A DNA stretch of 57,156 nt, taken from assembly GCA_002773095.1 (NCBI GenBank), contig PFCG01000022.1, positions 1 to 57,156 on the forward strand, read 5' to 3'. Position 1 is the first letter of the stretch, and the number at the start of each line of letters is the position of its first letter. Made by a program: the position numbers and the translations under genes. The notes beneath the pieces were generated by a model that saw nothing but the letters and a program-made list of their open reading frames with translations, was not told the origin of the DNA and ran no database searches. Below, in pieces: positions 3,478 through 55,500 of this stretch. Source of the stretch: Candidatus Moranbacteria bacterium CG10_big_fil_rev_8_21_14_0_10_35_21 (GTDB taxonomy: Bacteria > Patescibacteriota > Minisyncoccia > Moranbacterales > UBA2206).

Positions 3478-4971
3478 ATGTCTATGGAAATTATCACTAT
3501 TGAAAACGTTTTAAAAAGTATGCGGGTAACCGTCACTTCTCAGAGAGAAGCTTTAATTAGAAAAGCTTATGATTTTGCTTTAGCGGCTCATCATGGACAA
3601 AAACGCAAATCCGGAGAAGAATATATTCAACATTCCTTACGCACCGCTCTTAACTTGGCCAACATGGGAATGCGTTCACGAACAATCGCCGCCGGCCTAC
3701 TTCATGATGTGCCCGAAGATACGTCCGTTACCCTAGACGAGATTGAAAAAAATTTTGGAAAAGAAATTGCTTTCCTTATTTCCGGAATTACTAAGTTAGG
3801 AAAAATAAAATTAAGAGAAACCAAGGAAGAACTTTATTTAGAAAATCTACGTAAAATGTTTTTAGCTATGGCTTCTGATATTCGGGTTGTGATTATTAAA
3901 CTAGCTGACCGTTTGAATAATATGGAAACCCTGGATGCTTTATCGGAAGAAAAACAACGCCGCATTGCACTGGAAACTATGGAAGTTTACGCACCCATCG
4001 CCAATCGATTGGGTATTGGAGATATGAAAGATAAATTAGAAGATTTATCTTTCAAATATTTGGATAAAGAAAACTACGAAAAAACCCAGAAGCTTAAGGA
4101 AGAGGCTTTAGGAAAAAGCAAAAAATTTATCATCTTAGCTACCACTGAAATTAAGAAGGAATTGAAAAAAAGCGGAATCAAAGTCGTTGATGTTTTTGGG
4201 AGAACTAAACATCTTTACAGTCTTTATCAAAAATTGAAACGCTATGATATGGATATCGCTAAAGTTTACGATCTCTATGGAGTTCGGATAATTGTTCCGG
4301 AAGTAGCTGATTGTTATGAAGCCCTGGGTATCGTTCATAAAAAATATCATCCTTTAATTGGAAGGATTAAGGATTATATTTCTCTGCCTAAGCCTAACGG
4401 TTATCAATCAATTCACACTACAGTTTTTGGACCAGACGGCTTAATTATGGAGGTGCAGATTAGAACCCAAAAAATGGACATTGAATCTGAATTCGGAATC
4501 GCTGCTCATTGGATTTATTCCGATCATCGAAAAGATTGGAAAGACTTTTTCTTCAAAAAAGCTAAGCCTATTCCTGAAGAAGAATTAATTTGGGTTAAAC
4601 AACTTCGCGAATGGCAAAGTGAACTAGGTAAAGATAATCAAGAATTCGTGGAAAGTCTAAAAATAGATTTTTTCAAAAATCATATTTTTGCTTTTACTCC
4701 AATGGGAGATATTATTGATCTTCCGGAAGAAGCCACCCCTATTGATTTTGCCTATAAGGTTCATAGTCAAATCGGCCATCGCGCTGTCGGAGCCAAAGTA
4801 GATAAACGCATTGTTCCCTTGGATTATAAAATTAAAAATGGAGAAGTAGTTGAAATTATCACTTCCAAGGAAACTAAAAATCCCAGTCGCGATTGGCTGA
4901 GATTTGTGAGAACTTCTATGTCCAAAAGTGCTATTCGAAAAACACTTAAAAAAAACGATTTACTTAATTAA
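3478..4971 (+). CDS. short RelA/SpoT homologue: HD hydrolase + (p)ppGpp synthetase + TGS, no ACT/RRM tail
   Basis: HD region HHGQKRKSGEEYIQH...LLHDVPEDT. Synthetase region YGVRIIV...GYQSIHTTV...EVQIRTQKMD...AAHWIY. TGS region IFAFTPMGDIIDLP...GAKVDKRIVPLDYKIKNGEVVEI. The first ATG after the topA stop is at 3478. Confidence 0.85.
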   Translation: MSMEIITIENVLKSMRVTVTSQREALIRKAYDFALAAHHGQKRKSGEEYIQHSLRTALNLANMGMRSRTIAAGLLHDVPEDTSVTLDEIEKNFGKEIAFLISGITKLGKIKLRETKEELYLENLRKMFLAMASDIRVVIIKLADRLNNMETLDALSEEKQRRIALETMEVYAPIANRLGIGDMKDKLEDLSFKYLDKENYEKTQKLKEEALGKSKKFIILATTEIKKELKKSGIKVVDVFGRTKHLYSLYQKLKRYDMDIAKVYDLYGVRIIVPEVADCYEALGIVHKKYHPLIGRIKDYISLPKPNGYQSIHTTVFGPDGLIMEVQIRTQKMDIESEFGIAAHWIYSDHRKDWKDFFFKKAKPIPEEELIWVKQLREWQSELGKDNQEFVESLKIDFFKNHIFAFTPMGDIIDLPEEATPIDFAYKVHSQIGHRAVGAKVDKRIVPLDYKIKNGEVVEIITSKETKNPSRDWLRFVRTSMSKSAIRKTLKKNDLLN

Positions 4972-8060: not shown

Positions 8061-8285
8061 TTAATTTTTTGTCACTATTTGGTTAGAATTATTTATTCCC
8101 TTTAACTTTTTCTTCATCTCCTTCAAAAACTTCTTAATTATTTCTATATCTTTTTCAGTATAAAAACGCCATCCTCTGGAGTCTTTTTGAGGATGTAAAA
8201 TAAGCCCAGCGCGTTCCCAGCGTAGGATAGTGTTTCGATCTCTATCTATGAGATTCTCTACATCTTTAACTCGGATATATGTCAT
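8061..8285 (-). CDS. stand-alone MerR/excisionase-type HTH protein (74 aa), copy 2
   Basis: YIRVKDVENLIDRDRNTILRWERAGLI.HPQKDSRGWRFY fits the MerR-type HTH plus wing. There is no effector domain. Close paralogue of 14458..14667. Confidence 0.7.
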   Translation of the reverse strand: MTYIRVKDVENLIDRDRNTILRWERAGLILHPQKDSRGWRFYTEKDIEIIKKFLKEMKKKLKGINNSNQIVTKN

Positions 8286-8323
8286 AAACTTTTATTAAAC
8301 TCAAACCTTAATTCATAATTCGT

Positions 8324-11300
8324 CTACCTCCTTACCCACCCAAATATATCTTGGAAATTATTGATTATCATTTGCACTACATTTTCTTTTCTTCTCGGAG
8401 TTAACAAAGCATACTCGGTAGAAGTGCCTTCGTTACCGGATTTATCAATAGATTTAGCTTTGAAATAATAAACAGTGCCAGGTTTGAAAATAGTCACTAC
8501 CGCAATATGGCTCGGAGCAAAGTCTTCACTGATTTTAACTTCTTTTTCTTGTCCGGATTTACCTTCTTTGTAGATTAAAGCTGTCGTAGCCGGTTCATCA
8601 GTGGTCCAAGAAATAATAGTTTGTACTCTATCGCCTTGAGCTAAAGCCGAGTCAGTTCTAATCTGATCTATCTTAGGAGCATTTTCATCTTTTCCGGTAG
8701 TAAAGTTGGGACCATCTTGTTCAGTTTCATTCCCCTCTTCATCTCGGGCTTTAATCTTAGTAGAGAAAGTGGTGCCAGCTATTAGGTTTTTCAATTCTAC
8801 TTCATGAGTAGAAGTTAATGTTGGGACTCCTTGAAAACCAGAACCTTTACCTTCAGATAAATCAGTGTAGGAAATGAGAGCGTCAGTCGGCACGTTGGTA
8901 GTAAATTTAACTACCACTGAGTTTTCAGTCACATCCGTAATCTCAGTTCCCGAAATAGCTGGAGGTGATTTGGGCTCGAAAGTATAATCTCCGGAAGAAT
9001 ACAAATTATTAGTTGCATCCTTACCTTTGACTCGGAAATGATAAATTTGAGAAGAAATTAAACTGGTTAAAGTCACTTCGTGAACTTTAGTGAGAGTGGT
9101 GGATTCTTTAGTTTCTCCATAAGAAGTTGTTAATCCGTATTCCACAGTGGAAGTGGTATCTTTAGAAGTACTCCAGGTAATGACAGCTTGATTCAGTGAA
9201 GTAGAAACTACTTTAATGGAAGATAAAGTGGACGGTTCGCTGGTGGTGAAGTTGCCTTGAGCAGATTCGGCGATGTTGCCGGCGGCGTCCGTTGAAATAA
9301 TTGTGTAATAATATTTGGAAGCCGGGATTAAACCATTAATGATTACTGAATGATCAGTTACATAATTAGCTGAATCTGAATTAACTTCATAATTTCCAGC
9401 GATATTATCGTAAGTTCCATCTACTAACCCATAGGCTACTAAACTATTAGCCTCTTCGTCGGTTGTCCATGTTGCTGTGACTGATTCTCCGGTAATTGTC
9501 CCAATATTAATTCCACTGATAGATGGAGCGGTTGCATCAGCTGTATCTCCCCATCCGCTACTAGTTAAAAGTTCAGCTGAAGTAATAAATGAATATTCCG
9601 AAGACATAACCGTATTATCCAAATTATCCACACAAGTAATGCGATAATAATAAGTAGTGGAAAATATCAACCCAGTAACGTGGATGGAATGATTAGAATT
9701 ATATAAAGTTTCCGCAATTGGAACTTCGGTATAAGATCCAGAAGCAGTACCATATTCAATGGTACACTTGGCGTTTTGATCCGTATTAAAAGTAACCACG
9801 GCCTTAGTATCAGTAATCACTGAAGGTGGATCGGCAATATTCGTAATGGCACTCAACGCATCATGTTGTTCTCCTGGAACTCTCAATGTAGTAAAATTAT
9901 ATTCTACAGAAATAGTTGAGTTAGTATTGATATCAACGGAAGTAACGGTGTAATAATATTTAGTGTTGGCGGTGAGACCAGTGAGAATAACATAATGACT
10001 TTTGTCATAAGTGGCCACTGTTCCTGTGCTACCCAAAACTCCAGAAACAGTTCCGTAGGATACTTTGCTGTTAGCATTTTCATCGGTGGTCCAATTAATA
10101 GCCGCGGAAGTGTTGTTAATAATAGCGACATTAGGATTGGAAATAACTGGAGCCACCACATCCGAAGTCGTTACAAAGGAATAAAAGTTTCCAGCATTAT
10201 TATCTGTAGCCACATTAGACGAAGCATCCGTTGATTGGACATAGAAATAATAGGTAGTTCCACTCACCAATGGACTGCCTTCAAAACTGTTAACTATTTG
10301 AGTATGCACATATGGATAACTGCCTCCCACTAAACCTCCCGATACTGCCGGTATTGTTTCAGCACCAACCAATGCTCCACTAGACAAAGTATCAGAATAA
10401 ATTACTTGAGTATCGGAATCTACCGTGGTTAGCCAACTGATAGTTACTTGATTATTACTAACTTGAGGAGCGGTTACATTGGAAATAGCCGGACCATCCA
10501 GAGTAGTAAACGTATAATTGGCAATTGGAGAAGATCCTGGACTATCTTTGTCATTAGTTGCTTCATTACCGCTCGCATCCTGTGATTTTACTTGAATATT
10601 ATAGATCGTATTGGGTAGTATTCCAGTGACAATAACGGAGTGACTAGTTACCATAGAAGCATTTCCGGTTGTGGGTAAATATGTCGCATCGGTAGAATAA
10701 CCCACACTAGAACTGGACAATTCATTGGTCGTCCACGTTACCGTGGCCGAGGTGGTACCGATACCAGATATCGCTACACTCGAAATAGTTGGCGCGGTAG
10801 AATCACTAGACCCAGCTCCATCGGGAATATCATCCACAGTATCAGAATAAGCTGAAAGATTGCCTGCGGAGTCTTGAACATTTATTTTGTAATAATAATG
10901 AGTAGCAGCCGTAAGCCCACTATCAATAACATAATTAACTGTTCGATCGGTTGAGGTTTGCGCCTTCAACCAAATGGCATCACCAGTAGAATGGGAAGCC
11001 GCCACAGTATTATTTACTCCTCTGGTTATAGTTCCTCCCAGATCATTAGTTGACTTTGAAGTATAAGTTATTTGTTCATCGCCGATAATAATTGTTCCGG
11101 AAGTTGGCAAAAGTGAACCATTTGTGACTGTGATGGCTGTTGTGTCAGAGTTAGTTAGTTCCTCATTAAGAGTTAGCGATGATCCGGCAGAGCGCCAGAG
11201 GTTATAGCTAGTAAATCCAGCTCCGACTTCTGAACCAGAAATAGTATTCCAAGCAATAAATTCACGATAAATACTATTACCAGAATCGGAAGTATCATAA

Positions 11301-14300
11301 TACACCGGATTAGCTGGCTTAGCTGGAGTAATAGTCGCTGAAGAATCAGCAGTGTTTCCATAAGCATCTTTAATTCGTAAATAAACTGTCGCCGGATCAG
11401 AAGTCATTGAACTATAAGTATATGGAGAACTAAAAGATACGAAAGTAGAAAAACTAAGAGTATTGGAAACCGACATGGTGTAACTAGAATCATCAGATGG
11501 AGTAGCTAAGGTTAATAAATTAGTTGTATGATCAATAGCTGTTATAGAAACTCCGGTTGGATTAGCTGTGTCTAAAGCAAAACTGGAAGAAGTTCCATAA
11601 CCCAAATTATTAGCTCCTTCAGCATCATTGGCTTTTATCCTCACTTTCAAAGCTCCGTTATGTTGTGCGTCATAATCAGTTTTAGGAGTCCAAGTTATAG
11701 ATCTCAAAGTTCCAGGAATATAGGCATTAGTAATCGCAATCCCCGCTCCGACATCCCCAGAAACTGTCACCGCGTCGGCCCAAGTGGGGCTACCTCCACA
11801 ATCAGCTGTACAATATTGCAAAGTAACCGCCGCCACATCTGAAGTCGTATCGGAATCTCGCATATCATAAGTGACAGTCACCAAACCATCCGATCCTTGA
11901 GAAGCGGAAACGGTCTGCACTTCCGGCGCAGCATTCACCACATAAATAGTTGTGACATCAGCAATCGTTGGGGCATTAGTTCCATTGGAAGTTAAAGTTA
12001 TTTTATATTGAAACCAATTATCTCCACTCTGATCTTTCATGCCAGCCGGCATAGCATCGCTAGTACAAGTAACTGTAGTTGAAACTTTAGAACAATTAGA
12101 AGTATCCTTAGTAAAATCACTCCAACCTCCCCAAGCAGCACCATCGGAACCAGTCCTTAAGGATATAGTGGCACTAGTTCCAGCTGGAAGAGTTGAGTCC
12201 TCATTCCAACTCAATCCTCCCATAATATTAGCAGCGTCTGTGGTGTTATAGGGAGATGAAGTTAAGACTTGTGTGGTCGGATAATAAGAAGAGTTAATTG
12301 TCACATCATCCAATGAAGGAGTGACACTAGTATCATCCGTTGAAAGCGTAGCCCTATATTGAGCATAGCGATCTCCATCGGTCGTACAACTTCCAGTAGA
12401 AAGGTCAGCTCCATTAGTAATATCTGAACAAACTGAATCCCATGCCTTGGAAACAGTTTCTCCAGAACAAGCCGCATCATCACAAGTTCGTGCTTGAATA
12501 GTAATTGTTTTTCCTAATGTATGTGTCCAAGAAATTAAATCCCAAGTATATGTATTTTTTCCGATATCCATAATATCAGAAGTATAAGTTCCGGGGGTAG
12601 AAAATACTGGGTTATAAAGATACACATCTTTATTGGTCTCGTCATATACATAGGCTATTCTGGGATAATTATCTTTTCCAACCCTTAATCGCATACCACT
12701 TCCAGTCCATGGGATATCCAGTTTAACTGTCGTCGGCCCTGAATAACTTGAACAAGTTGCATTATCGCAACTAACTATTTTCAAATCTGGAGCACCACTA
12801 ACATAATAGGAATACGCAATTACAGGAAATCCATTTGGTCCGATATCAATATCCACATCACCACGCCATTCTTGCGTTGTAAAAGCTACCGTAGAATTAC
12901 CACTAGAACAGGCTCCATTTCCGCACCTCAAAAAAGTAGCCTTGTCGTCTGTAGTATTTCTAAAAACAACATCCGCAATTCCGCCAGAATCAACTTGCAA
13001 AGCTATGGGTTGTTTTCCACCATTTGCAATATCATAGTCTGAATAACCAATAATATTTGAGCTGTTGCCCGCCGAACAAGCAGCGTCTCCACATTGGATA
13101 AAATTAGCAGTAAAATCTGTAGCAGCGCCCGACATATAAGCTATTCTAGGTACGTCGTCTGTTCCTAAATCTAAATCTGAATCAACTTTTCCATAACCAA
13201 CCCCATCACTAGCCACTGGATTTGTTACGAAGGAAGAACAATTAGTTGTCGTGCATTGAGCAAGACTTAATACTGCGCTAACTGAATAAATCATTACCGG
13301 ATTAGAACTAGAATCTACAGTCATATCTATAGCACTACCCCCACTATTCAAAATTGTTACGGGAGAGGAGGGATTAATAGAACTACAAGCGGCATTAGCA
13401 CACTGTGCAAATTTTAATTTGTTATCACTGCTATCTCTATAAAATATTTGCGCAAAATCGTTACTGTTAAGAACAAAAACGCCACTACCAAAGTTGAATC
13501 CAGAACTTGCCAAATTAGTAGTAACTTTTGAAGAACAAGATCCATTTAAACATTGCACAAAATATTTTACAGTGTTATCAGTATATAAAATGCGCGAATA
13601 ACCATCAGATCCAATTTGGGCATCATATACATCGGTACCGGTAGCATCCACTGCACTACTTACGGAACTAGAAGAACTTAATTGGATAGAAGCACTGTCT
13701 CCAGTGTTATCTACATGGGTAGAAGAATAACTAGCACTCGCTGAATTAAAACTAGTATTGTCATCCGTGCTACTGTCAGTTTGCACAATAGAACCAGTCG
13801 AAATTCCCAGTGTGACACTATTATATGGATCCGATCCTCCAGTTAGAGATACTCCGGAATCCTTGGACACATAATCAGTAAATCCAGTTTGATCGCTTCC
13901 ATGTGTCGCACCGGCTCCCGCTAGAGTTCCATCCCATTGGGTTTGCACAAAAGTAAATGTCGCTCCCGAAGAATATTGTGAATTTTGAATATAAGTAGAG
14001 GCCAGAGTAACCACAATGACTGTTAAATATACAAATCTTCTCGCCCAAGTGTTTCTAAATATTTTCCTAATTTTACCAAAAACATTTTGCCAATTAAATA
14101 TATTTTTAATTTGAAAGTTAGTTTTAGCTTCTCTTTTTCTGTGTCTTGATAAAAAGTTTATTTTGTCTATTCTTCTGTTAGGTAAAAACTGTAATTTATT
14201 TATTTTAGCTTTTTTATTTATTTTTACCTTTTGGATAAGATAAATAACCATACCCGATATTATTCGTAAAACTATTTTTATTATTCTCATTAATCCCACA

Positions 14301-14452
14301 AAAATAGTTTTAAACAAACCAACAATCTGCTTAACCGAAATATTCACTCCTCGTTTTTTTCTTCCAGAAGCAAAGGAAACTGTCCTCCGAGATATTCCAT
14401 CTAGGTTTCTATGAGTGACTATTAAGTTTTTCTTTTTTATTGAGAAAAACAT
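8324..14452 (-). CDS. giant membrane-anchored surface protein (about 2040 aa): basic N-tail, one TM, Cys-repeat propeller-like region, beta-sandwich modules, eight FN3-like modules
   Basis: ORF 8324..14470 opens with GTG. The first ATG is at 14452, 5 nt after the stop of the upstream HTH gene. The first 145 aa are Lys/Arg-rich, followed by the hydrophobic span FVYLTVIVVTLASTYI and a Ser/Thr/Asn-rich body. Two repeat systems are listed separately below. Confidence 0.85.
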   Translation of the reverse strand: MFFSIKKKNLIVTHRNLDGISRRTVSFASGRKKRGVNISVKQIVGLFKTIFVGLMRIIKIVLRIISGMVIYLIQKVKINKKAKINKLQFLPNRRIDKINFLSRHRKREAKTNFQIKNIFNWQNVFGKIRKIFRNTWARRFVYLTVIVVTLASTYIQNSQYSSGATFTFVQTQWDGTLAGAGATHGSDQTGFTDYVSKDSGVSLTGGSDPYNSVTLGISTGSIVQTDSSTDDNTSFNSASASYSSTHVDNTGDSASIQLSSSSSVSSAVDATGTDVYDAQIGSDGYSRILYTDNTVKYFVQCLNGSCSSKVTTNLASSGFNFGSGVFVLNSNDFAQIFYRDSSDNKLKFAQCANAACSSINPSSPVTILNSGGSAIDMTVDSSSNPVMIYSVSAVLSLAQCTTTNCSSFVTNPVASDGVGYGKVDSDLDLGTDDVPRIAYMSGAATDFTANFIQCGDAACSAGNSSNIIGYSDYDIANGGKQPIALQVDSGGIADVVFRNTTDDKATFLRCGNGACSSGNSTVAFTTQEWRGDVDIDIGPNGFPVIAYSYYVSGAPDLKIVSCDNATCSSYSGPTTVKLDIPWTGSGMRLRVGKDNYPRIAYVYDETNKDVYLYNPVFSTPGTYTSDIMDIGKNTYTWDLISWTHTLGKTITIQARTCDDAACSGETVSKAWDSVCSDITNGADLSTGSCTTDGDRYAQYRATLSTDDTSVTPSLDDVTINSSYYPTTQVLTSSPYNTTDAANIMGGLSWNEDSTLPAGTSATISLRTGSDGAAWGGWSDFTKDTSNCSKVSTTVTCTSDAMPAGMKDQSGDNWFQYKITLTSNGTNAPTIADVTTIYVVNAAPEVQTVSASQGSDGLVTVTYDMRDSDTTSDVAAVTLQYCTADCGGSPTWADAVTVSGDVGAGIAITNAYIPGTLRSITWTPKTDYDAQHNGALKVRIKANDAEGANNLGYGTSSSFALDTANPTGVSITAIDHTTNLLTLATPSDDSSYTMSVSNTLSFSTFVSFSSPYTYSSMTSDPATVYLRIKDAYGNTADSSATITPAKPANPVYYDTSDSGNSIYREFIAWNTISGSEVGAGFTSYNLWRSAGSSLTLNEELTNSDTTAITVTNGSLLPTSGTIIIGDEQITYTSKSTNDLGGTITRGVNNTVAASHSTGDAIWLKAQTSTDRTVNYVIDSGLTAATHYYYKINVQDSAGNLSAYSDTVDDIPDGAGSSDSTAPTISSVAISGIGTTSATVTWTTNELSSSSVGYSTDATYLPTTGNASMVTSHSVIVTGILPNTIYNIQVKSQDASGNEATNDKDSPGSSPIANYTFTTLDGPAISNVTAPQVSNNQVTISWLTTVDSDTQVIYSDTLSSGALVGAETIPAVSGGLVGGSYPYVHTQIVNSFEGSPLVSGTTYYFYVQSTDASSNVATDNNAGNFYSFVTTSDVVAPVISNPNVAIINNTSAAINWTTDENANSKVSYGTVSGVLGSTGTVATYDKSHYVILTGLTANTKYYYTVTSVDINTNSTISVEYNFTTLRVPGEQHDALSAITNIADPPSVITDTKAVVTFNTDQNAKCTIEYGTASGSYTEVPIAETLYNSNHSIHVTGLIFSTTYYYRITCVDNLDNTVMSSEYSFITSAELLTSSGWGDTADATAPSISGINIGTITGESVTATWTTDEEANSLVAYGLVDGTYDNIAGNYEVNSDSANYVTDHSVIINGLIPASKYYYTIISTDAAGNIAESAQGNFTTSEPSTLSSIKVVSTSLNQAVITWSTSKDTTSTVEYGLTTSYGETKESTTLTKVHEVTLTSLISSQIYHFRVKGKDATNNLYSSGDYTFEPKSPPAISGTEITDVTENSVVVKFTTNVPTDALISYTDLSEGKGSGFQGVPTLTSTHEVELKNLIAGTTFSTKIKARDEEGNETEQDGPNFTTGKDENAPKIDQIRTDSALAQGDRVQTIISWTTDEPATTALIYKEGKSGQEKEVKISEDFAPSHIAVVTIFKPGTVYYFKAKSIDKSGNEGTSTEYALLTPRRKENVVQMIINNFQDIFGWVRR
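8408..10798 (-). other. eight tandem FN3 / purple-acid-phosphatase-N-like modules (coordinates approximate)
   Basis: Recurrent ..VTWTT/..ISWTT.. start and YY..V.S.D..GN end, e.g. IYNIQVKSQDASGN, YYFYVQSTDASSN, YYYTVTSVDINTN, YYYTIISTDAAGN and VYYFKAKSIDKSGN. Confidence 0.65.
12611..13648 (-). other. six ~50-aa repeats each carrying C-x4-C (coordinates approximate)
   Basis: Motifs FVQCLNGSCSS, FAQCANAACSS, LAQCTTTNCSS, FIQCGDAACSAG, FLRCGNGACSS and IVSCDNATCSS at aa 307, 357, 406, 460, 516 and 568. Each follows a hydrophobic strand (e.g. PRIAY, PVIAY). The periodicity suggests a 6-bladed propeller. Confidence 0.5.
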
Positions 14453-14457
14453 ATACT

Positions 14458-14667
14458 TTAATTTTTGCACCGGAAAGCCGGCAGATTACTTCTCATCTCC
14501 TTCATAAATTTCTTGATTATTTCAATATCTTTTTCGTTATAAAAACGCCATCCTCTGGAGTCTTTTTGAGGATGTGGAATAAGCCCAGCGCGTTCCCAGC
14601 GTAGGATGGTATTTCTGTCACGGTCTATAAGCTTCTCTACATCTTTAACTCTTATGTATTCCATCAT
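14458..14667 (-). CDS. stand-alone MerR/excisionase-type HTH protein (69 aa), copy 1
   Basis: MMEYIRVKDVEKLIDRDRNTILRWERAGLIPHPQKDSRGWRFYNEKDIEIIKKF. Nearly identical to copy 2 over the HTH. ACGGGG-AAAAAA-ATG gives an SD-like GGGG 6 nt upstream. Confidence 0.7.
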   Translation of the reverse strand: MMEYIRVKDVEKLIDRDRNTILRWERAGLIPHPQKDSRGWRFYNEKDIEIIKKFMKEMRSNLPAFRCKN

Positions 14668-14995
14668 TTTTTTCCCCGTTAGAAATTCCAGGATTAATTA
14701 GATAATTTTTTAGCCTATTTTTTATGTAGCGCTTCCCCATTCCAGATTTAAGATACTTTTCTCTTGCTTTTGCGTCATCTATGTTTAAACCTGCTTCGCT
14801 ATAAATTATTTGAAATGGCCCTCTATTTTTGGTAGAAAGACTTTTTCCCTGATTATGTTGTGAAAGTCTTTTTTTTAAATTTTGCGTATAGCCCGTATAC
14901 CAACATTTATCCTTCTCACTTCTTAAAACATAAACATACCACCACTGGTGAATTTCTAACGGGGTTTCGACGTCTTTGATACGGATATATGTCAT
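14645..14995 (-). CDS. GIY-YIG nuclease (COG2827/UPF0213 type) fused behind 11 MerR-like codons
   Basis: WYVYVLRSEKDKCWYTGYTQNLKKRLSQHNQGKSLSTKNRGPFQIIYSE...AKAREKYLKSGMGKRYIKNRL matches the small GIY-YIG family. The N-terminal MTYIRIKDVE copies the MerR-like gene start. Confidence 0.8.
   Translation of the reverse strand: MTYIRIKDVETPLEIHQWWYVYVLRSEKDKCWYTGYTQNLKKRLSQHNQGKSLSTKNRGPFQIIYSEAGLNIDDAKAREKYLKSGMGKRYIKNRLKNYLINPGISNGEKNDGIHKS
14674..14964 (-). mobile_element. GIY-YIG cassette bounded by a perfect 15-nt inverted repeat
   Basis: CCCCGTTAGAAATTC at 14674..14688 and GAATTTCTAACGGGG at 14950..14964 are exact reverse complements. They enclose only the GIY-YIG domain coding sequence. 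Confidence 0.6.
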
Positions 14996-15105
14996 CTACT
15001 TTTACTTTTTGTATTTATTTTATTTTCAATATTTTTTTCGTGTTATATGCTATATGTTTCATGTTTTATTAATAGCTTTATTATATCCTATTTTAAATAT
15101 ATTTG

Positions 15106-15129
15106 ATATAGTGAATATATTCACTATAT
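15106..15129 (-). promoter_or_regulatory. 24-bp perfect palindrome in a candidate promoter spacer (possible MerR-type operator)
   Basis: ATATAGTGAATATATTCACTATAT. On the minus strand it reads TTGTTA, an 18-nt spacer and TATATC, upstream of the GIY-YIG / HTH / giant-protein gene string. Confidence 0.4.
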
Positions 15130-15130
15130 A

Positions 15131-15154
15131 ACAAAAAATAAGCCATTAAGGCTT
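15131..15154 (-). terminator. rho-independent terminator after ddl
   Basis: The minus strand reads AAGCC-TTAAT-GGCTT followed by ATTTTTTG. Confidence 0.55.
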
Positions 15155-15261
15155 AAATAAGGCAAAATATGGACTATTTTAGATTTTCTTACAAAAGTTA
15201 TCCACACCCCTAAAATAACCTTTTTTACCAAAATTTATCACGGGGCGTAGTAGGTATAATC

Positions 15262-16218
15262 TTAACTATTTTTTCGTTTTTTCCCCAAGGCTAACTTTAC
15301 TTGTAATTCAATGAACTTCGAAAAACTAATTCCAGCTGCTCTCGCCTCTTTTGGACAAAGACTGGCCTCAGTTTGTCCAGGAATAGTATTTATTTCTAAA
15401 AAATGAAGTTTGCCTTTTTTGTCTAGAATAAAATCTGATCGAGTTAGGCCATCACATCCTAACGCTTGATGAATTTTGACGGATAACTCTCCAATTTCTT
15501 TTTCCGATTTTGACGAAATTTTAGCTGGAGAAATTTCTTGAGTATCTTGAGAAAAATATTTTTCTTCATACCCGAAAAATTTATTTTTACCTACAATAAT
15601 TTCTGCCGAAGGCAAGACTTTTATTTTTTTGTTTCCAGTATTTCCCAAAACTCCGCAAGTAAGTTCTCTTCCGGAAATATATTTTTGCACCATCACCCAC
15701 TCCCCTTCTCGAAAGGCCTCCTTTAATGCTTGCGAAAGTTCTCCTTGTTTTTTTGTAATAGACACTCCGATGCTCGATCCAGATTCGCTAGGCTTAACTA
15801 CACAAGGAAATCCAATTTCTTTTTTTATTTTTTCCGGAAGATTCTTTTCTCCTTTTTTAATCACTATAAAATCAGGAAAACTTATTCCGTAAGCTCTTAG
15901 AAAATCCAAACACTTTATTTTATCCATGCCTAAAGCACTAGCTAAAACCCCAGAACCAGTATAAGGAATTTTCAAAAAGTCCAAAATGGCTTGGATTTTT
16001 CCATCCTCTCCAAATTGTCCATGAAGCGCAATAAAAGCTACTTGAAACTTTCCTTTAGAAATTTGCCCAAACCATTTTCCATTTTTAGAAACATCTAAAA
16101 CATTAGCTTGATATTTTTCTTTTGGAAGTGCTTTGGCCACTTGCTGCGCTGTCTTAATTGACACTTCCCGTTCGCTGGAAAAACCACCACCTAAAACCGC
16201 TACTCTGATTTTTTTCAT
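15262..16218 (-). CDS. ddl: D-alanine--D-alanine ligase
   Basis: KIRVAVLGGGFSSEREVS start and an ATP-grasp body (FPCVVKPSESGSSIGV, LEINTIPG). Confidence 0.9.
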   Translation of the reverse strand: MKKIRVAVLGGGFSSEREVSIKTAQQVAKALPKEKYQANVLDVSKNGKWFGQISKGKFQVAFIALHGQFGEDGKIQAILDFLKIPYTGSGVLASALGMDKIKCLDFLRAYGISFPDFIVIKKGEKNLPEKIKKEIGFPCVVKPSESGSSIGVSITKKQGELSQALKEAFREGEWVMVQKYISGRELTCGVLGNTGNKKIKVLPSAEIIVGKNKFFGYEEKYFSQDTQEISPAKISSKSEKEIGELSVKIHQALGCDGLTRSDFILDKKGKLHFLEINTIPGQTEASLCPKEARAAGISFSKFIELQVKLALGKKRKNS

Positions 16219-29090: not shown

Positions 29091-30621
<1,531 letters not shown>

Positions 30622-30698
30622 TTCATAGTATTTATTATATTTTCATTAAAGAGTTAACGGGTTATTTTTTAACTCGTGAACTCGTTAATAATTAATAA

Positions 30699-31748: not shown

Positions 31749-31799
31749 AATATTAAAATAATCAAGATACAAGATACAATAACCAAACAAATTTCAAAT

Positions 31800-32180
31800 T
31801 CAAATATTCAATTGCTTATTTTCTGTTTTTTTGATAATTGCCAACAAAATATTCTTTAACTCCATTCCTTCTTGTTTTAATTCTTGTATTCTGGATTTAA
31901 ATTCCGGATTATCTTCTTCAATCAACTCCAGCCAATGCAGTGTTTCTTTTGCTTCTTTTCTGGAAATTTTCATCCGATGTATAAAATCTTTTTTTCCTAA
32001 CGCATCATTAGCTTCTCTATAATTTGCTCCTACTGAACCGGCAGAACCTGCCGTTTGCCCCGTTAATCTATTGTTTATCGAATCTTTCGGCAATGATTTG
32101 CATAATCTTATTACTCTTTTTGCAAATTCAGCAGTTCTTTCTTCTAAATCAAATTTATTTTTGTTTTGAGTATTGGTCAT
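31800..32180 (-). CDS. four-helix-bundle protein (23S rRNA intervening-sequence protein family)
   Basis: FDLEERTAEFAKRVIRLCKSLPK...GQTAGSAGSVGANYREA...KDFIHRMKISRKEAKETLHWLELI matches that family. Confidence 0.8.
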   Translation of the reverse strand: MTNTQNKNKFDLEERTAEFAKRVIRLCKSLPKDSINNRLTGQTAGSAGSVGANYREANDALGKKDFIHRMKISRKEAKETLHWLELIEEDNPEFKSRIQELKQEGMELKNILLAIIKKTENKQLNI

Positions 32181-32208
32181 TTTAATTTGCTTGTATCTTG
32201 CTTCTTGG

Positions 32209-33798
32209 TTATTGGTGATTGGTATAAACTTCTTTGAATTCTTTAATACTCTTTTCCAATGCCTTCACTACTTCTTCCGTCAATTCTTTCTTTTCTATGA
32301 TTAATTTCAAAGTTTCTTTGCCACTTCCTTTCAGATATTTGTGAAAATCATTCTCCCATTTTTGGATTTCTTCCACGGCCACATCATCCACAAATCCGTT
32401 GGTCAGGGCATAGAGAATCACTACTTGATTTTCCACTGCCATCGGTTCGTATTGCCCTTGCTTCAAAATTTCCACCGTTCTTTTTCCTCTTTCAATTTGA
32501 CGCCTAGTATTTTCATCCAAGTCAGAACCAAATTGTGCAAAGGCTTCCAATTCTCGAAACTGTGCCAAATCCAAACGGAGTTTTCCAGCCACTTTTTTCA
32601 TAGCTTTGATTTGCGCGGCGGAACCCACTCGAGAAACGGAAAGTCCTGCATTAATAGCCGGGCGAATGCCTTTATAGAATAAATCAGATTCCAAATAAAT
32701 TTGTCCGTCAGTAATAGAAATAACATTGGTTGGAATATAGGCTGAAACATCTCCAGCTTGGGTTTCAATGATTGGCAAAGCAGTGAGCGATCCTCCACCA
32801 AAATCTTTATTAAGCTTTGCTGAACGTTCCAAAAGTCGGGAATGCAAATAGAAAATATCTCCAGGATAAGCTTCGCGTCCCGGTGGTCGACGCAAAATTA
32901 ATGACACTTGCCGATACGCCCAAGCATGTTTAGATAAATCATCATAAATTACCAGCACGTCTTTGCCTTGGTCCATAAAGTATTCTCCCAGTGAACAGCC
33001 TGAATAGGGCGCAATATAGGAAAAAGCAGCTGGATCAGACGCTCCTGCAATCACAACAGTCGTATATTCCATAGCTCCCTTTTTTTCCAATTCAGCCACA
33101 ATACGTGCAATTTTAGATTCTTTCTGACCAATAGCCACATAAATACAAATCATGCCTGCCCCGTGATCGCCGTTAGGCGATTTTACGGGGTTCTGCCCAT
33201 TCTTCTTCAATTTATCCCATTCATATTTCTGATTTATTATGGCATCCACTGCAATGGCAGTTTTTCCAGTTTGTCGGTCACCAATAATCAATTCTCTTTG
33301 ACCGCGACCAATTGGAATCATCGCATCAATCGCCTTAATACCAGTTTGCACTGGCTGATTCACTGATTGACGAGTAATAACCCCTGGAGCAATTTTTTCA
33401 ATCGGATAAAATTTTTCTGAGCTTATTTCTCCCTTTCCGTCCACCGCTTGCCCCAATGGATTGACCACTCTTCCAATCATATTTTCTCCAACTGGAATAG
33501 ACAGAATTTTGCCGGTAGATTTCACGGTGTCGCCTTCCTTGATTCCTTCAAAACTGCCCAAAATCATCGCGCCTACTTGACCTTCTTCTAGGTTCAAAAT
33601 TACACCAAAAATTCCGCCCGGGAATTCAATCATTTCTGAAGCCATCACGTCGGATAGTCCAGAAATTTTGGCCACGCCGTCTCCGACTTCAATAACCGTT
33701 CCGACTTTTTCCGTCGTCGCAGTGGTTTCAAAACCCTCAATTTGTTTTTTTAGTTGTTCGATGATGTAGTCTTTGCTTGCCCCGTTAATTTTTTCCAT
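32209..33798 (-). CDS. atpA: ATP synthase F1 alpha subunit
   Basis: Walker [18 protein letters not shown] and the C-terminal helical domain. Confidence 0.95.
33159..33190. repeat. 32-nt hairpin in frame in atpA
   Basis: CCCCGTGATCGCC-GTTA-GGCGATTTTACGGGG encodes [11 protein letters not shown] between the INQK and CIYVAIGQK blocks. Confidence 0.6.
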
Positions 33799-34329: not shown

Positions 34330-34333
34330 ACGT

Positions 34334-34685
34334 GTCGTCCCGAGCTTGTCGAGGGATCTAATTTATAATGTTTTGTATAAATCCTTCCACTCTGGGTTAA
34401 TTTTATTAATTAAATTTACTTTTTTCTCTCTTCTCCACTTTTTCAATTGCTTTTCTCTTTCTAACGCACTTCTTACGTTTTCAGTTTGTTCAAAATACAC
34501 TAACTTATCAACATTGTATTTTTTTGTAAAACCATCGACTACTTTATGCTTATGCTGATAAATTCTTCTTTTCAGATCATTTGTAACTCCGATATATAAA
34601 ACCTTTGAGATACTTGATAAAATGTAAACGCAATATTGTCTCATTTTTATTTAATATTAGATCCTTCGACTTCGCTCAGGATGAC
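34334..34685 (-). mobile_element. GIY-YIG cassette bounded by ~30-nt imperfect inverted repeats (family A arms)
   Basis: Left arm GTCGTCCCGAGCTTGTCGAGGGATCTAAT at 34334..34362. The right arm (34656..34685) reads GTCATCCTGAGCGAAGTCGAAGGATCTAAT as its reverse complement. About 24 of 30 positions match. Confidence 0.65.
34363..34644 (-). CDS. GIY-YIG nuclease (COG2827/UPF0213 type), 93 aa
   Basis: YCVYILSSISKVLYIGVTNDLKRRIYQH...LVYFEQTENVRSALEREKQLKKWRREKK. Confidence 0.85.
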   Translation of the reverse strand: MRQYCVYILSSISKVLYIGVTNDLKRRIYQHKHKVVDGFTKKYNVDKLVYFEQTENVRSALEREKQLKKWRREKKVNLINKINPEWKDLYKTL

Positions 34686-34693
34686 ACATGGTG

Positions 34694-38445: not shown

Positions 38446-38481
38446 TTCTTCCTTATATCCATATAACCTTATAAGGAAGAA
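38446..38481. repeat. 36-bp inverted-repeat arm (left) flanking the TrpR/YerC-like gene
   Basis: TTCTTCCTTATATCCATATAACCTTATAAGGAAGAA. It is itself a 12-bp stem with a 12-nt loop, and is the exact reverse complement of 38933..38968. Confidence 0.85.
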
Positions 38482-38495
38482 ATTATATTAACTAA

Positions 38496-38900
38496 CTAGT
38501 TTAGTAAATCTTTTAAAATTCTATGTCCGGGATATTTATCCAGCATAGTATATTCTCTATACTTTTTGGCATCTTTTTCTTTTAATCCATTCTTTATCCG
38601 TCCACTTATCCAATAATAATACTCATCACCTCTTTCTTTTAGCCAATGATCAGTTTTCGCTATTGTTTGAAAACTGACCTTTAATTTTTTTCTTATCGTT
38701 TCCGCTGTTTCTTCATCAATAATCATTTTTGCAACCTGAATTCTTCTGCCCATCATTAAGGCTTCACTAGGCGTTAACATACCCATAAAAAAATCTATTA
38801 TTTCTTTTTTTGACTTGAGTTCCGCAATAACATTCAAAAGGCAACCAATTGACTGGTATTTTTCCTTTTCATCAATTTCATAAACTTTAATTTTTGCCAT
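38496..38900 (-). CDS. TrpR-related YerC/YecD-like DNA-binding protein
   Basis: FFMGMLTPSEALMMGRRIQVAKMII...TIRKKLKVSFQTIAKT resembles the YerC/TrpR HTH layout. Confidence 0.55.
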   Translation of the reverse strand: MAKIKVYEIDEKEKYQSIGCLLNVIAELKSKKEIIDFFMGMLTPSEALMMGRRIQVAKMIIDEETAETIRKKLKVSFQTIAKTDHWLKERGDEYYYWISGRIKNGLKEKDAKKYREYTMLDKYPGHRILKDLLN

Positions 38901-38932
38901 CTTTTTGTTTTATCTGCTTAAATATATTTTTT

Positions 38933-38968
38933 TTCTTCCTTATAAGGTTATATGGATATAAGGAAGAA
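38933..38968. repeat. 36-bp inverted-repeat arm (right)
   Basis: TTCTTCCTTATAAGGTTATATGGATATAAGGAAGAA is the perfect reverse complement of the left arm. Confidence 0.85.
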
Positions 38969-52562: not shown

Positions 52563-55500
52563 TTATTTTTTTACCTGAATCTTTAACTTTTCTCCATCAA
52601 CATCAAATTCTTTTTCCAAATCAAAATTTTCCAAAGTTTCTTTTATTTCATTGGCTAAAACTTCCTTGGCAATCAAATCATTAAACTTTTCAAATATCTC
52701 CTTGCCTCCAACATAGCCCACGCTAATATGATCGTCAACAACATAATCCGCTTCTTTTCTCATTGTTTGGATAAATCGAATAATTTCCCTCGCTTGGCCT
52801 TCCAATTTTAATTCGGGAGTGATTTCGATGTCTATCGCAACTGTTTCAGTCTCTGATCCTATTTCAGCTCCTTTAACATTTAATTCTTCAATGATAATAT
52901 TGCTCCATTCTGGTTTATTAATTAATTCATCAAAAACACTTTCATATTTTTTTCCAAGAATAACACGCTTTAAAGGTTGTCGAACCTTAATTTTATTTTT
53001 TGCCCGATCTTGTAATCCCAATGTTATAATTTCGCGAAGGGCACCCATATTTTCATTCAATTTTTCATCAATTAATTTTTCATCCGCTACCGGAAAATCA
53101 ACCAAATGAACCGATTCTTCGCCAGTTAGATTTTTATAAATTTCTTCAGATATGAAAGGTGTAAAAGGCGCCATTAATTTTGAAAGCTCCATCAGTGACA
53201 TATGCAAAGTTTGATAAGCGCTTTCCTTGTCGCCATCGTCCTCTGATTTCCAAAATCTTTTTCGTGATCGTCGAATATACCAATTAGAAAGATTATCTAC
53301 AAATTTTTCTATTATTCCGGCCGCGCCGTAAACATCATAGCTCTCTAATTTTTCGTCAACATTTTTGATTAATATATTCAACTCAGAAATAATCCATTTA
53401 TCCAAAAGATTTTCTGATTTCCATATTCCTTTTGTCTCCCATTGATCAATATTCGCGTAGAGTACAAAAAAAGAATATGAATTCCAAAGCATGCGGAAAA
53501 CCCGATTCATGATTTCATTCATGCCTTTGATATCAAATTTTTTCGTCATCCCTGGCTGATTAATTGTAAAAAGCATCCAGCGCAACATATCTGCGCCATA
53601 TTTATCCATTACTTCCATCGGATCAACTATGTTGCCTTTAGATTTACTCATTTTTTTACCTTTGCTATCTAAAATGAGATTTAAACAAATGACATTTTTA
53701 TAGGCATAGCCAGCTGGAACTTTTCCTGCTTTATTAAGTAATGTTGCGATGGCGTGCAAAGTATAAAACCAACCGCGTGTTTGATCGATGGCTTCAGAAA
53801 TATAATCTGCGGGGAAAAAATTTCCGCTTTCAATTTTTTTTTTGTCTTCTTTTGAAGCTTGGTTGGGATAGCTGAATTGCGCTAATGGCATAGATCCGGA
53901 ATCAAACCAAACATCCAAAACTTCTGGAACTCTTTTCATTTCTTCTCCACAAACACATTTAAATTTCACATCATCAATATATGGTTTATGTAAATCCTCT
54001 AGTTTTTGTCCAGACATTTTTTCCATTTCCGATATAGATTCAATGACTTTCAGTTCTCCGCACTTAGCACATTCCCAAATAGGAAGCGGCGTGCCCCAAT
54101 ATCTTTCTCGAGAAATCGCCCAATCCTTAACTCCGAGAAGCCATTCGCCAAATCTTCCTTCTTTGATATATTCCGGAATCCAATTTATGTTTTCATTATT
54201 TTTTCCCAGATCCGAAGAAAGTTCGCTCATCTGGATGAACCAGGATGGTTTGGCATAATAAATCAAAGGCGTATCGCATCGCCAGCAGAAAGGATATTCA
54301 TGTTCGTATAATTCTTCTTTTAATAATAATCCTCTTTCTTTTAAATCTTCTATAATCAACTCGTCAGCTGCATATTTATTTCTTTCGTTTTTCTTTTTTA
54401 CCGGAAGACCTTCGCCTGGAATATTAAACCCAGAGATTATTTTTCCGGTTTCATCCACGGTTAAAAGTGTTGGCAAATTATTTTCCCTACCAACATTAGC
54501 ATCATCTTCTCCGAAAGCCGGAGCAATATGCACAATGCCCGTTCCTTCTGAAGTGGAAACAAAATCTCCTGAAACTACATAATGCACTTTTTTGTTTTCT
54601 TTGTTCTCACTATTATATAAAGGCTCGTATTCAAGATTTAACAAATTTTTTCCCAAAAACCCACCTGCTATTTTATACTCTCCTTCAACAACACTCAGCC
54701 TATTTTTAGCTAAAATATAACAACTGTCATGCTGAACTTGTTTCAGCATCTCTTGAGATCCCGAAACAAGTTCGGGATGACATTTTATTTTTACATACTC
54801 AATCTCTTTATTTACCGCCAATGCCACATTCCCTGGCAATGTCCACGGCGTGGTCGTCCAAGCCAGAAAATAAGTATTGTCATCAATGCCCTTTTCCGGA
54901 TTTGGCTTAGCTTTAAATTTTACATAAATAGAATTATCTTTAACCATTTGATATCCTTGAGCAACTTCATGTGAAGAAAGAGTTGTCCCACAACGATAGC
55001 AATATGGCACAACTTTATGCCCTTTATAAATTAAGCTTTCTCCTTTTTTGTTTTTCGTTTTGAAAATTTGAGCCACCACCCACCAGACTGATTCAATATA
55101 TTTATTTTTATAGGTAATATATGGATTTTTCATATCCACCCAATACCCCATTCTTTCAGTTAATTTTTCCCATTGATCCTTATATTTCCAAACCGACTCT
55201 TTACATTTTTTATTGAATTCGATAATACTTTCACGTGGATTTCCGGGAACGATATTCTCTATTTCTTGCTTATTCTTAAGACCCATTTCTTTTTCTACCT
55301 GCAATTCCACTGGTAATCCATGCGTATCCCAACCAGCCTTTCTTTCCACTCGATAACCTTTCATGGTTTTGTAGCGAGGAATGATATCCTTAAATGCCCG
55401 TGCCAAAACATGATGCAACCCCGGCTGGCCATTAGCTGTCGGAGGACCCTCATAAAAAACAAAAGATTTATCAGAAGAATTTTTTTCTACTGATTTTTCA

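Follow-up and report, generated by a model that had tools for sequence, protein, structure and literature searches.

The window analysed here is a stretch of 57,156 nt (positions 1 to 57,156, forward strand) of contig PFCG01000022.1 (assembly GCA_002773095.1) of Candidatus Moranbacteria bacterium CG10_big_fil_rev_8_21_14_0_10_35_21. On its minus strand, at 14674..14964, a 291-bp unit (97 codons) made up of a left arm, a GIY-YIG coding region and a right arm is probably a carrier copy of a compact mobile element, in which a GIY-YIG nuclease gene is enclosed by 13-bp ends, insertion would occur at TGAA-type sites, and movement would be driven by the nuclease. Units of this kind, each of about 280 bp, form a family that is widespread and apparently undescribed. 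The finding is a small GIY-YIG gene with cognate repeats, kin of the known Ssn type, and the probability that the family is a novel kind of autonomous transposon in miniature is substantial.

The nuclease open reading frame (ORF), of 116 amino acids (aa; 14645..14995, minus strand), comprises a leader of 10 MerR-like codons, the element, and a tail EKNDGIHKS followed by the stop codon. An earlier note on this DNA had described a GIY-YIG domain between exact 15-nt inverted arms, lying in frame in the 5' end of a MerR-like gene, and these arms were found: CCCCGTTAGAAATTC occurs exactly at 14674-14688 of the plus strand and its reverse complement exactly at 14950-14964. Read along the gene, the left arm CCCCGTTAGAAATTC lies at 14950..14964 (13-bp family core 14952-14964) and the right arm GAATTTCTAACGGGG at 14674..14688 (core 14674-14686), both on the minus strand, and in the window copy they are translated as T-P-L-E-I and G-I-S-N-G, respectively. 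The leader MTYIRIKDVE (14966..14995, minus strand) supplies the start codon, and the first 14 nt of the ORF, ATGACATATATCCG, are, as the note had it, identical to the start of an uninterrupted MerR paralogue at 8061..8285 (minus strand). No in-frame ATG, GTG or TTG is present between the left arm and the GIY motif, and the window copy of the nuclease therefore relies on the upstream ATG. The ORF ends 23 nt within the intact MerR-like helix-turn-helix gene (69 aa; 14458..14667, minus strand; Pfam MerR_1, E = 2.6e-8; 5' coding sequence ATGACATATATCCGAGTTAAAGATGTAGAG), which restarts as MMEYIRVKDVE 7 nt past the element, again in agreement with the note. The restart segment AAAAAAATGATGGAATACATAAGAGTTAAAGATGTAGAGAA (14633..14673, minus strand) consists of an A-rich spacer, the new start and MerR codons 1-11. 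The same leader-fusion architecture was found in two relatives, P0001 and P0002 (99% and 95% identical), located beside MerR on short metagenome contigs (L001 and L002).

The GIY-YIG catalytic domain occupies residues 19-85 of the protein (14741..14941, minus strand) and matches Pfam PF01541 with E = 6.6e-17 and 62 bits, against a cut-off of 22.6. Residues Y20, Y22, Y33-T34-G35, R43, H47 and E67 are invariant in a 26-sequence alignment and intact in the window copy. The AlphaFold2 model has a core pLDDT above 90 and a beta-beta-alpha-beta-alpha-alpha layout. Foldseek ranked 1zg2 (the UPF0213 protein BH0048) first, with Slx1 structures also among the top matches, and a PDB profile search returned 1zg2 with E = 2.1e-12 and 1ywl (EF2693) with E = 5.7e-7, consistent with membership of the UPF0213/Slx1-like branch. 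In NCBIfam no named family was matched, the hits to group I intron endonuclease and UvrC models all being sub-threshold. The relatives are single-domain proteins of 84-95 aa, and the window copy reaches 116 aa only through its leader and tail. The stand-alone UPF0213/Slx1-like proteins, which match best in both sequence and structure, also consist of a minimal GIY-YIG domain; their descriptions mention no inverted ends, duplications or mobility.

A protein search returned 883 relatives, and a genome scan with one genome per species returned more than 550; the locus count that follows refers to the best 80 tblastn loci. Of these homologous GIY-YIG loci, 76/80 carry a CCCCGTTAGA-like sequence just before the gene and a TCTAACGGGG-like sequence at its end, at a fixed spacing of approximately 265-272 nt. 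The proportion of 76/80 may be inflated because the query used for ranking included arm-encoded residues. In an independent protein list, arm-encoded C-terminal tails were present in 74 of 120 sequences. An exact 15-mer reverse complement inside 300 nt is not a chance occurrence, and the recurrence of the same arms at homologous genes elsewhere is more decisive. The ends of the family can be written as (C/T)CCCGTTAGA-NNN ... NNN-TCTAACGGG(G/A), 13 bp long and complementary. In many relatives the N-terminus reads ..TPLEI.. or MNPVRD.. and the C-terminus ..FLSLTG or ..KISNGV; these recurrent peptide tails are one DNA motif read in different frames, and conservation therefore acts on the DNA.

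Carrier loci were found in bacteria of the candidate phyla radiation (CPR), Omnitrophota, Planctomycetota, Nitrospirota, Bacteroidota, Desulfobacterota and others, with the caveat that the binning of metagenome-assembled genomes (MAGs), and with it the taxon assigned to a locus, may be wrong. The arm family is ancient, extends beyond the window genome and is spread over many phyla. The contigs of L040, assigned to a Woesearchaeota archaeon, and L041, assigned to Saccharibacteria, are identical over the element and its right flank; occurrence in archaea is doubtful because this identity reflects either mis-binning or a very recent transfer and L040 is the sole "archaeal" locus. The literature, searched also for the text of the motif itself, yielded no account of the element, with coverage that is thin for subscription papers, so that an earlier description is possible.

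The arms were analysed in 126 non-redundant elements selected by strict arm matching; a looser version allowing two mismatches was swamped by false pairs and discarded. Complementarity between the two arms is 91-100% at positions 0-12, drops to 46% at position 13 and is about 25% beyond, which defines an inverted repeat of 13 bp, as against the 15 bp reached by the window copy. Variants of the ends are matched across both arms (CCCC../..GGGG, TCCC../..GGGA, ..TTACA/TGTAA.. and TACC../..GGTA), and at positions 0, 10, 11 and 12 double-sided changes (45, 46, 18 and 51) exceed one-sided ones (7, 4, 5 and 11). Among the carriers, 11 of 962 arm pairs depart from Watson-Crick pairing, with no G-T bias. 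Recognition of the paired stem is favoured over read-out of a fixed duplex sequence, because complementarity is kept at the positions that are free to vary and because the solved structures closest to the protein belong to structure-specific nucleases. The same pattern of complementarity would arise if one end were copied from the other.

The flanking sequences show that the units insert as discrete elements with 3-4-bp target-site duplications, most often TGAA. An exact 4-nt flanking repeat was observed for 52 of the 126 elements; under a re-pairing null, 2000 trials averaged 14 and never exceeded 26. TGAA forms the last four nucleotides of the left flank in 22/75 carriers and the first four of the right flank in 35/75, where TAAA occurs in a further 9. 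Among the 39 carriers lacking TGAA on either side, repeats of at least 3 nt were found in 19 (null 3.1) and of at least 4 nt in 10 (null 0.96), and the duplicated sequences vary (CAGA, CGCA, CAGG, TATA, TTGA, TTTA, CTGG, TGCG and TTATGA). At two loci (L009 and L049), an element splits a tyrosine-recombinase integrase gene inside the conserved LLEGGYDI|RTVQELLG, with a 3-nt duplication (TCC). Tandem-stacked elements share a single duplication at five loci (L040, L055, L061, L071 and L081), and one Omnitrophota MAG holds two copies (L013 and L054) that are 97.5% identical and lie in unrelated flanks. The 1.24 Mb of fetched loci also contained approximately 50 distinct copies without a gene, 27-150 bp long, whose ends are those of the carriers and whose duplications are of the same kind. 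The window itself contains one carrier and one gene-less copy.

The gene-less copy in the window, of 95 bp (30527..30621, minus strand), is located in the start codon of atpD. Its arms, at 30527-30541 and 30607-30621, differ from those of the carrier by one and two mismatches, respectively, which bears out the earlier note's description of an ORF-less element with the same arms at this position; they pair in the predicted DNA fold (z = -4.1). One copy of the TGAA duplication lies to the left of the element as read along the gene (30622..30625, minus strand) and is part of the original ATGAA of atpD, as established by comparison of empty and filled sites. The other lies to the right (30523..30526, minus strand) and forms, with the last base of the arm, GTGAAG in frame with atpD. 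With the 95-bp element and a single copy of TGAA taken out, the window atpD reads ATGAAGAATCTAGGAAAAATAGCACAA, and AtpD orthologs start with MKN[LTVI]GK. At locus L115, where AtpD is 93% identical, the site is empty and reads accatATGAAAAACACAGGAAAAG (also ATGAAAAAC and catATGAAAAACACAGG). The same empty site is present on a second contig, L116, which comes from the same metagenome as a filled one, L117 (AtpD 88% identical). The filled site of L117 reads ATGAA, then the element from CCCCGTTAGAAAT to ATTTCTAACGGGG, then TGAAAAACACAGGAAAAG, that is, ATGAA-element-TGAAAAAC, and the window site reads ATGAA-element-TGAAGAAT. Since the empty sites L115 and L116 differ from the filled sites of L117 and the window by the element plus TGAA, the atpD copy is a true insertion. 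The mobile cassette with carrier and empty forms envisaged in the earlier note is thus upheld by the arm family, the target-site duplications, the gene-less derivatives and this pair of atpD states.

Many of the surviving copies lie right on a host start codon (ATGAA). In 22/75 carriers, the last base of the arm and the TG after it form the start codon of a host ORF of at least 100 codons; this codon is ATG when the arm is of the T/A variant and GTG when it is of the C/G variant. The stop codon of the nuclease is the first triplet of the right flank in 46/75, usually the TGA of TGAA. In approximately 15 carriers the nuclease can be read in frame from the ATG within the left ATGAA, giving MNPVRD..., and in 6 of these it is the only ATG. 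These arrangements are consistent with a design in which, after insertion into ATGAA, the nuclease ORF would use the ribosome-binding site and ATG of the host, the duplicated TGA would terminate the nuclease, and the last arm base with TG would rebuild the host ATG or GTG in an ATGA or GTGA overlap.

Two recurrent settings were recorded among the loci. In another lineage, 8 listed contigs from 7 samples (L118-L125) share an identical 86-aa family member in one and the same context, 5 nt upstream of folD. At six loci from several phyla (L024, L026, L051, L058, L076 and L077), the element lies at the 3' end of one shared gene, whose product has the C-terminus ...FDAIRQL and which may be an ORF6N-type gene. 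This recurrence could come from one favoured insertion site at the stop codon, or from joint travel with a second mobile gene.

At the MerR locus, the origin of the leader was traced by comparison with an ortholog, L087, in which the gene is uninterrupted (ATGACATATATTCGCGTTAAAGACGTTGAGAAAATT) and a homologous upstream region, including a palindromic operator-like sequence, is present. The homology of this upstream region and of the first codons identifies the leader as the original 5' end of MerR, so that the borrowed start proposed in the earlier note, and its expectation of uninterrupted versions in related genomes, both hold. Relative to L087, the window carries in addition the element and a duplicate of about 40 nt of the start region, AAAAAAATGATGGAATACATAAGAGTTAAAGATGTAGAG. 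The leader and restart are in frame if a 4-nt duplication is removed, and the immediate flanks of the element share AAA only (cgaaa|...|aaaaaa). The proposed regeneration of the MerR start thus stands in that the start is restored downstream, and needs amending as to its route, which is atypical for the family. An origin of the leader in the element's own target duplication was considered and rejected, the duplication of the family being 3-4 bp and the MerR segment about 40 nt.

Comparison with L002 indicates that the MerR block, made up of the element and the restart, has recently moved laterally. The two loci are identical at 285/291 nt of the element (97.9%), 41/41 of the restart and 25/31 of the leader, and the element part of the ORF differs by four synonymous and two non-synonymous changes. 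The flanks are 77% (upstream region), 81-86% (rest of MerR) and 81.5% (folD region) identical, and the contrast between the block (326/332 nt) and the 77-86% flanks is significant (Fisher p = 4.6e-13). It follows from this contrast that the element and restart passed between lineages, by exchange or conversion, long after the genomes had split, with the leader following the host. In the paralogue at 8285 the first 14 nt are those of the leader and the 17 nt after them those of the restart, a mosaic that fits either a target site split in two or loss of the block when the repeats recombined. A layout of leader, hairpin and restart at the same junction, with gene-less hairpins, was found in further members of the MerR group, both orthologs and paralogs: L091 and L093 show it clearly, L088 and L095 in degenerate form.

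Several side observations concern this locus. At L093 (~3930-4000) and L091 (~400-444), as well as at L088 and L095, a duplicated N-terminal leader is followed by gene-less hairpins, for example CCCCAATAGCAATCCCGCAAAGCGGGATGATACGGGG, and then by the restart; the inner stem ATCCCGC/GCGGGAT of CCCCAATAGCAATCCCGCAAAGCGGGATGATACGGGG resembles Neisseria dRS3/NTS. In the window, two MerR paralogues flank a gene for a 2048-aa surface-type protein (8061-14667), and the same arrangement occurs on contig Ga0172379_10001095 (L083 and L084). L002 has the element, MerR and folD without the large gene, and its MerR is closer to the 8285 paralogue, which suggests deletion or recombination between the MerR paralogues. 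Upstream of the MerR leader, a perfect palindrome ATATAGTGAATATATTCACTATAT (15106..15129, either strand), with similar sequences upstream of MerR orthologs on other contigs, is probably an autoregulatory MerR operator or promoter region driving the whole unit. Promoter and terminator scans performed no better than chance, and the promoter-like site lay at 15046-15017. A weak arm-like sequence, CCCCGTGATAAATTT...TTTTAGGGG, at 15192-15245 between ddl and the MerR operator has unpaired halves and may be a decayed copy or a chance match. A third copy of the element at the arm-like match 15231-15245 was rejected, the arms failing to pair.

The observations are consistent with the following pathway for a mobile element. 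A single-domain UPF0213/Slx1-like nuclease ORF of approximately 86-94 aa would be bounded by complementary 13-bp ends, and the encoded nuclease would recognise these paired ends, either as a hairpin or cruciform stem, as in Ssn, or as duplex terminal repeats. It would then make the cuts that initiate excision and insertion, with completion by host repair or ligation. Internal deletion would give rise to gene-less miniature copies, such as that in atpD, which persist and stack in tandem. At the MerR locus, the element would lie in frame in the displaced 5' end and be translated from there, with MerR saved by the 41-nt duplicated start segment. We infer that the nuclease itself moves the element from its exclusive association with the ends and from the compact layout. 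More speculatively, a staggered 4-nt cut at the boundary of arm and flank would leave TGAA/TTCA overhangs, a religatable donor and a fit to TGAA targets, and would explain the dominance of TGAA.

A bolder version of this proposal is tenable, if short of an even chance: that the family is a class of autonomous transposon, possibly the smallest (~280 bp), whose sole ~90-aa Slx1-like nuclease would read the 13-bp stem and cut with a 4-nt stagger at TGAA, host ligation or repair finishing the reaction, and which would be adapted to start codons, borrowing the host ATG and returning a rebuilt one.

The following points weigh against movement by the nuclease, together with the possible inflation of the locus count noted above. 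The proposal is drawn from sequence rather than from biochemistry or genetics, GIY-YIG enzymes are hydrolytic, and we know of no strand-transfer activity among them. About 40% of copies have no clear duplication, and the length of the repeat varies between 3 and 4 nt. The MerR duplication of about 40 nt falls outside the family's 4-bp rule. Identical nuclease proteins in differing contexts were sought, and the two found on many contigs and in many samples, P0056 and P0092, occupied the same locus each time, with no very recent jump caught. The preference for start codons may be mere survival of harmless insertions at TGAA sites; as a rough estimate, start-codon TGAA may make up about a fifth of all non-disruptive TGAA sites.

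For the MerR locus in particular, a less likely alternative is a free-standing homing cassette for MerR-like genes, which would spread by recombination between leader and restart and an intact MerR, possibly after cleavage of the intact site by the nuclease. The near-identity of element and restart (98-100%) between genomes with 77-86% flanks would be expected from such spread, as would the shared junction of L091, L093, L088 and L095, and the 8285 paralogue has the composition of a split target. The family, however, inserts at many unrelated sites with short duplications, and the leader lies outside the highly similar block; cleavage of MerR is purely conjectural, and the mosaic argument is post hoc and concerns one paralogue. 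Homing GIY-YIG enzymes (phage Seg, the I-TevI family) resemble the present unit as selfish genes in gene-dense regions that leave host genes intact, and co-conversion resembles the behaviour of the MerR block, whereas they have extra DNA-binding domains, lack inverted ends and duplications and act at one cognate site; here the protein is single-domain and the sites are many.

Rather improbable is a domesticated Ssn-type system, that is, a host site-specific single-stranded DNA (ssDNA) nuclease whose recognition repeats, the arms and miniature copies, would tune recombination or transformation. The genes of Ssn GIY-YIG nucleases are bracketed by hairpin repeats, and it is beside these repeats that the proteins bind and cut ssDNA (Chenal et al. 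2025, Nat Commun 16:2388, PMC11893778). Those authors noted a layout like that of insertion sequences (IS); duplications, empty sites and CPR members are unreported there (PMC11893778). Of the systems described so far, Ssn with its NTS repeats comes closest. Both have a single-domain GIY-YIG protein of ~90 aa, a gene bracketed by inverted repeat copies, many gene-less copies and a distribution over many phyla. The sequence of repeat, small GIY-YIG gene and repeat is the ssnA layout of Chenal et al., whose proteins cleave ssDNA beside the hairpins and influence transformation; the window also holds a typical Ssn-like cassette at 34363-34644, and arms that keep so strictly to Watson-Crick complementarity would suit a ligand of hairpin form.

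Against a purely Ssn-type role stand the varied duplications, the atpD polymorphism, the integrase insertion and the tandem stacking with one duplication, all of which show discrete insertion. Target-site duplications, empty and filled sites and insertion at start codons, documented here, are unmentioned in the Ssn paper. Ssn repeats are self-folding hairpins of 20-50 nt, whereas the arms CCCCGTTAGAAAT are not self-complementary and form 13-bp half-sites that pair with each other across the element. The published SRM regular expression (HGTCWY...RNCYNB) had 0 matches in the window, the Ssn-like cassette included, and it cannot separate the two cassette types because that cassette also fails its strict form. 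The present protein is nearest to UPF0213/Slx1, and the family profile aligns with the window's Ssn-like protein (34363-34644) only over residues 18-84, the C-terminal halves being different. The arms of the 34363-34644 cassette begin TGTCAT..., like the repeats of the Ssn family, and its protein aligns over the catalytic core only. An Ssn-type role and a mobile element are compatible, and Ssn-like biochemistry could drive mobility. A precedent of another kind is a Slx1-like domain recently inserted in an HsdR gene, for which the authors of a survey asked whether such domains are molecular parasites (Dunin-Horkawicz et al. 2006, PMC1564403).

A slim prospect is that the units are MITEs (small transposable elements with inverted repeats) moved in trans by an unrelated transposase, with the GIY-YIG gene as cargo or hitch-hiker. 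Terminal inverted repeats with 3-4-bp duplications and a T..A bias are typical of DDE transposons, and the ends and duplications observed here look DDE-like. The numerous gene-less copies and the lack, to our knowledge, of GIY-YIG strand transfer fit this account as well. In the loci, however, the GIY-YIG nuclease is the sole protein consistently tied to the ends across phyla, ends and protein are conserved together, and the start and stop codons overlap the ends, leaving no room for another gene. No other transposase was seen among the called genes around the loci examined, the 80 loci not having been systematically screened.

Known repeat systems share some of these properties and, like the homing genes above, are functional analogues that each depart from the family in at least one defining feature. 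Correia/NEMIS MITEs and Rickettsia palindromic elements are likewise short, with terminal inverted repeats and short duplications, lie in or by coding regions, sometimes in frame, and can supply or alter expression signals. Their partner is a DDE transposase or not known, whereas the full-length form here holds the GIY-YIG gene, and the terminal base of the element combines with the duplication to restore the start codon of the host gene. REP/RAYT and IS200/IS605 systems also have a small nuclease gene in inverted palindromic repeats, gene-less proliferation and hairpin DNA as the likely ligand. Their enzyme is an HUH/Y1 transposase, in contrast to the GIY-YIG protein that is the sole ORF here, and IS200/IS605 has subterminal hairpins and no target-site duplication, in contrast to termini that pair with each other and are flanked by duplications.

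Very improbable is action of the arms at the RNA level, as a stem, for example for RNase III or translational coupling, that would process or regulate the inserted ORF and its downstream neighbour in the manner of rRNA intervening sequences: the arms do close a stem in predicted folds, and the 23S_rRNA_IVP and YerC-like ORF cassettes of the window are also bracketed by inverted repeats, but the few non-Watson-Crick pairs (11/962) comprise, on the sense strand, 2 of the G-U type against 3 A-C, unlike conserved RNA helices (a test that is weak for its few mismatches, though without any G-U excess), a permissive Rfam search of 14300-15400 matched zero RNA families, and target-site duplications and insertion polymorphism would go unexplained.

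Other cassettes were noted in the window. The first GIY-YIG cassette (34332-34687, minus strand) contains a 93-aa ORF (34363-34644) between atpF and atpH. Its arms, GTGTCATCCTGAGCGAAGTCGAAGGATCTAAT and ATTAGATCCCTCGACAAGCTCGGGACGACAC, form an imperfect inverted repeat of about 31 nt and begin TGTCAT like SRM repeats, and they fail the strict published expression. We take the tail of its protein, ...REKQLKKW...NPEWKDL, to be typical of the Ssn family (cd10448). A gene-less hairpin at 54722-54785, CTGTCATGCTGAACTTGTTTCAGCATCTC/GAGATCCCGAAACAAGTTCGGGATGACA, resembles an empty relative of this arm family. Between atpA and atpG, at 31757-32213 (minus strand), a 126-aa 23S_rRNA_IVP (four-helix-bundle) ORF is bracketed by 23-nt inverted repeats that are 87% complementary; relatives (L117) carry this ORF and further small ones (DUF559, PDDEXK_3) at various points of the atp operon. 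At 38446-38968 (minus strand), a 134-aa YerC/YecD (TrpR-like) ORF is framed by a perfect 37-nt inverted repeat, both copies of which are hairpins in their own right (TTCTTCCTTATA...TATAAGGAAGAA).

The conserved DNA motif explains, as read-through, the recurrent metagenomic peptide tails TPLEI, MNPVRD, FLSLTG and ISNGV, and it explains odd N-terminal extensions and apparent fusions of housekeeping genes, here of atpD and MerR. If the nuclease does drive movement, a hydrolytic GIY-YIG enzyme would join the short list of bacterial DNA mobilisers, and an extremely compact selfish element would be common in CPR bacteria and many other phyla. The nucleases, each with a defined 13-bp stem, could serve as sequence- or structure-specific DNA tools, like Ssn. 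The start-codon design would make an insertion expressed yet harmless, which bears on gene calling and translational coupling in reduced genomes.

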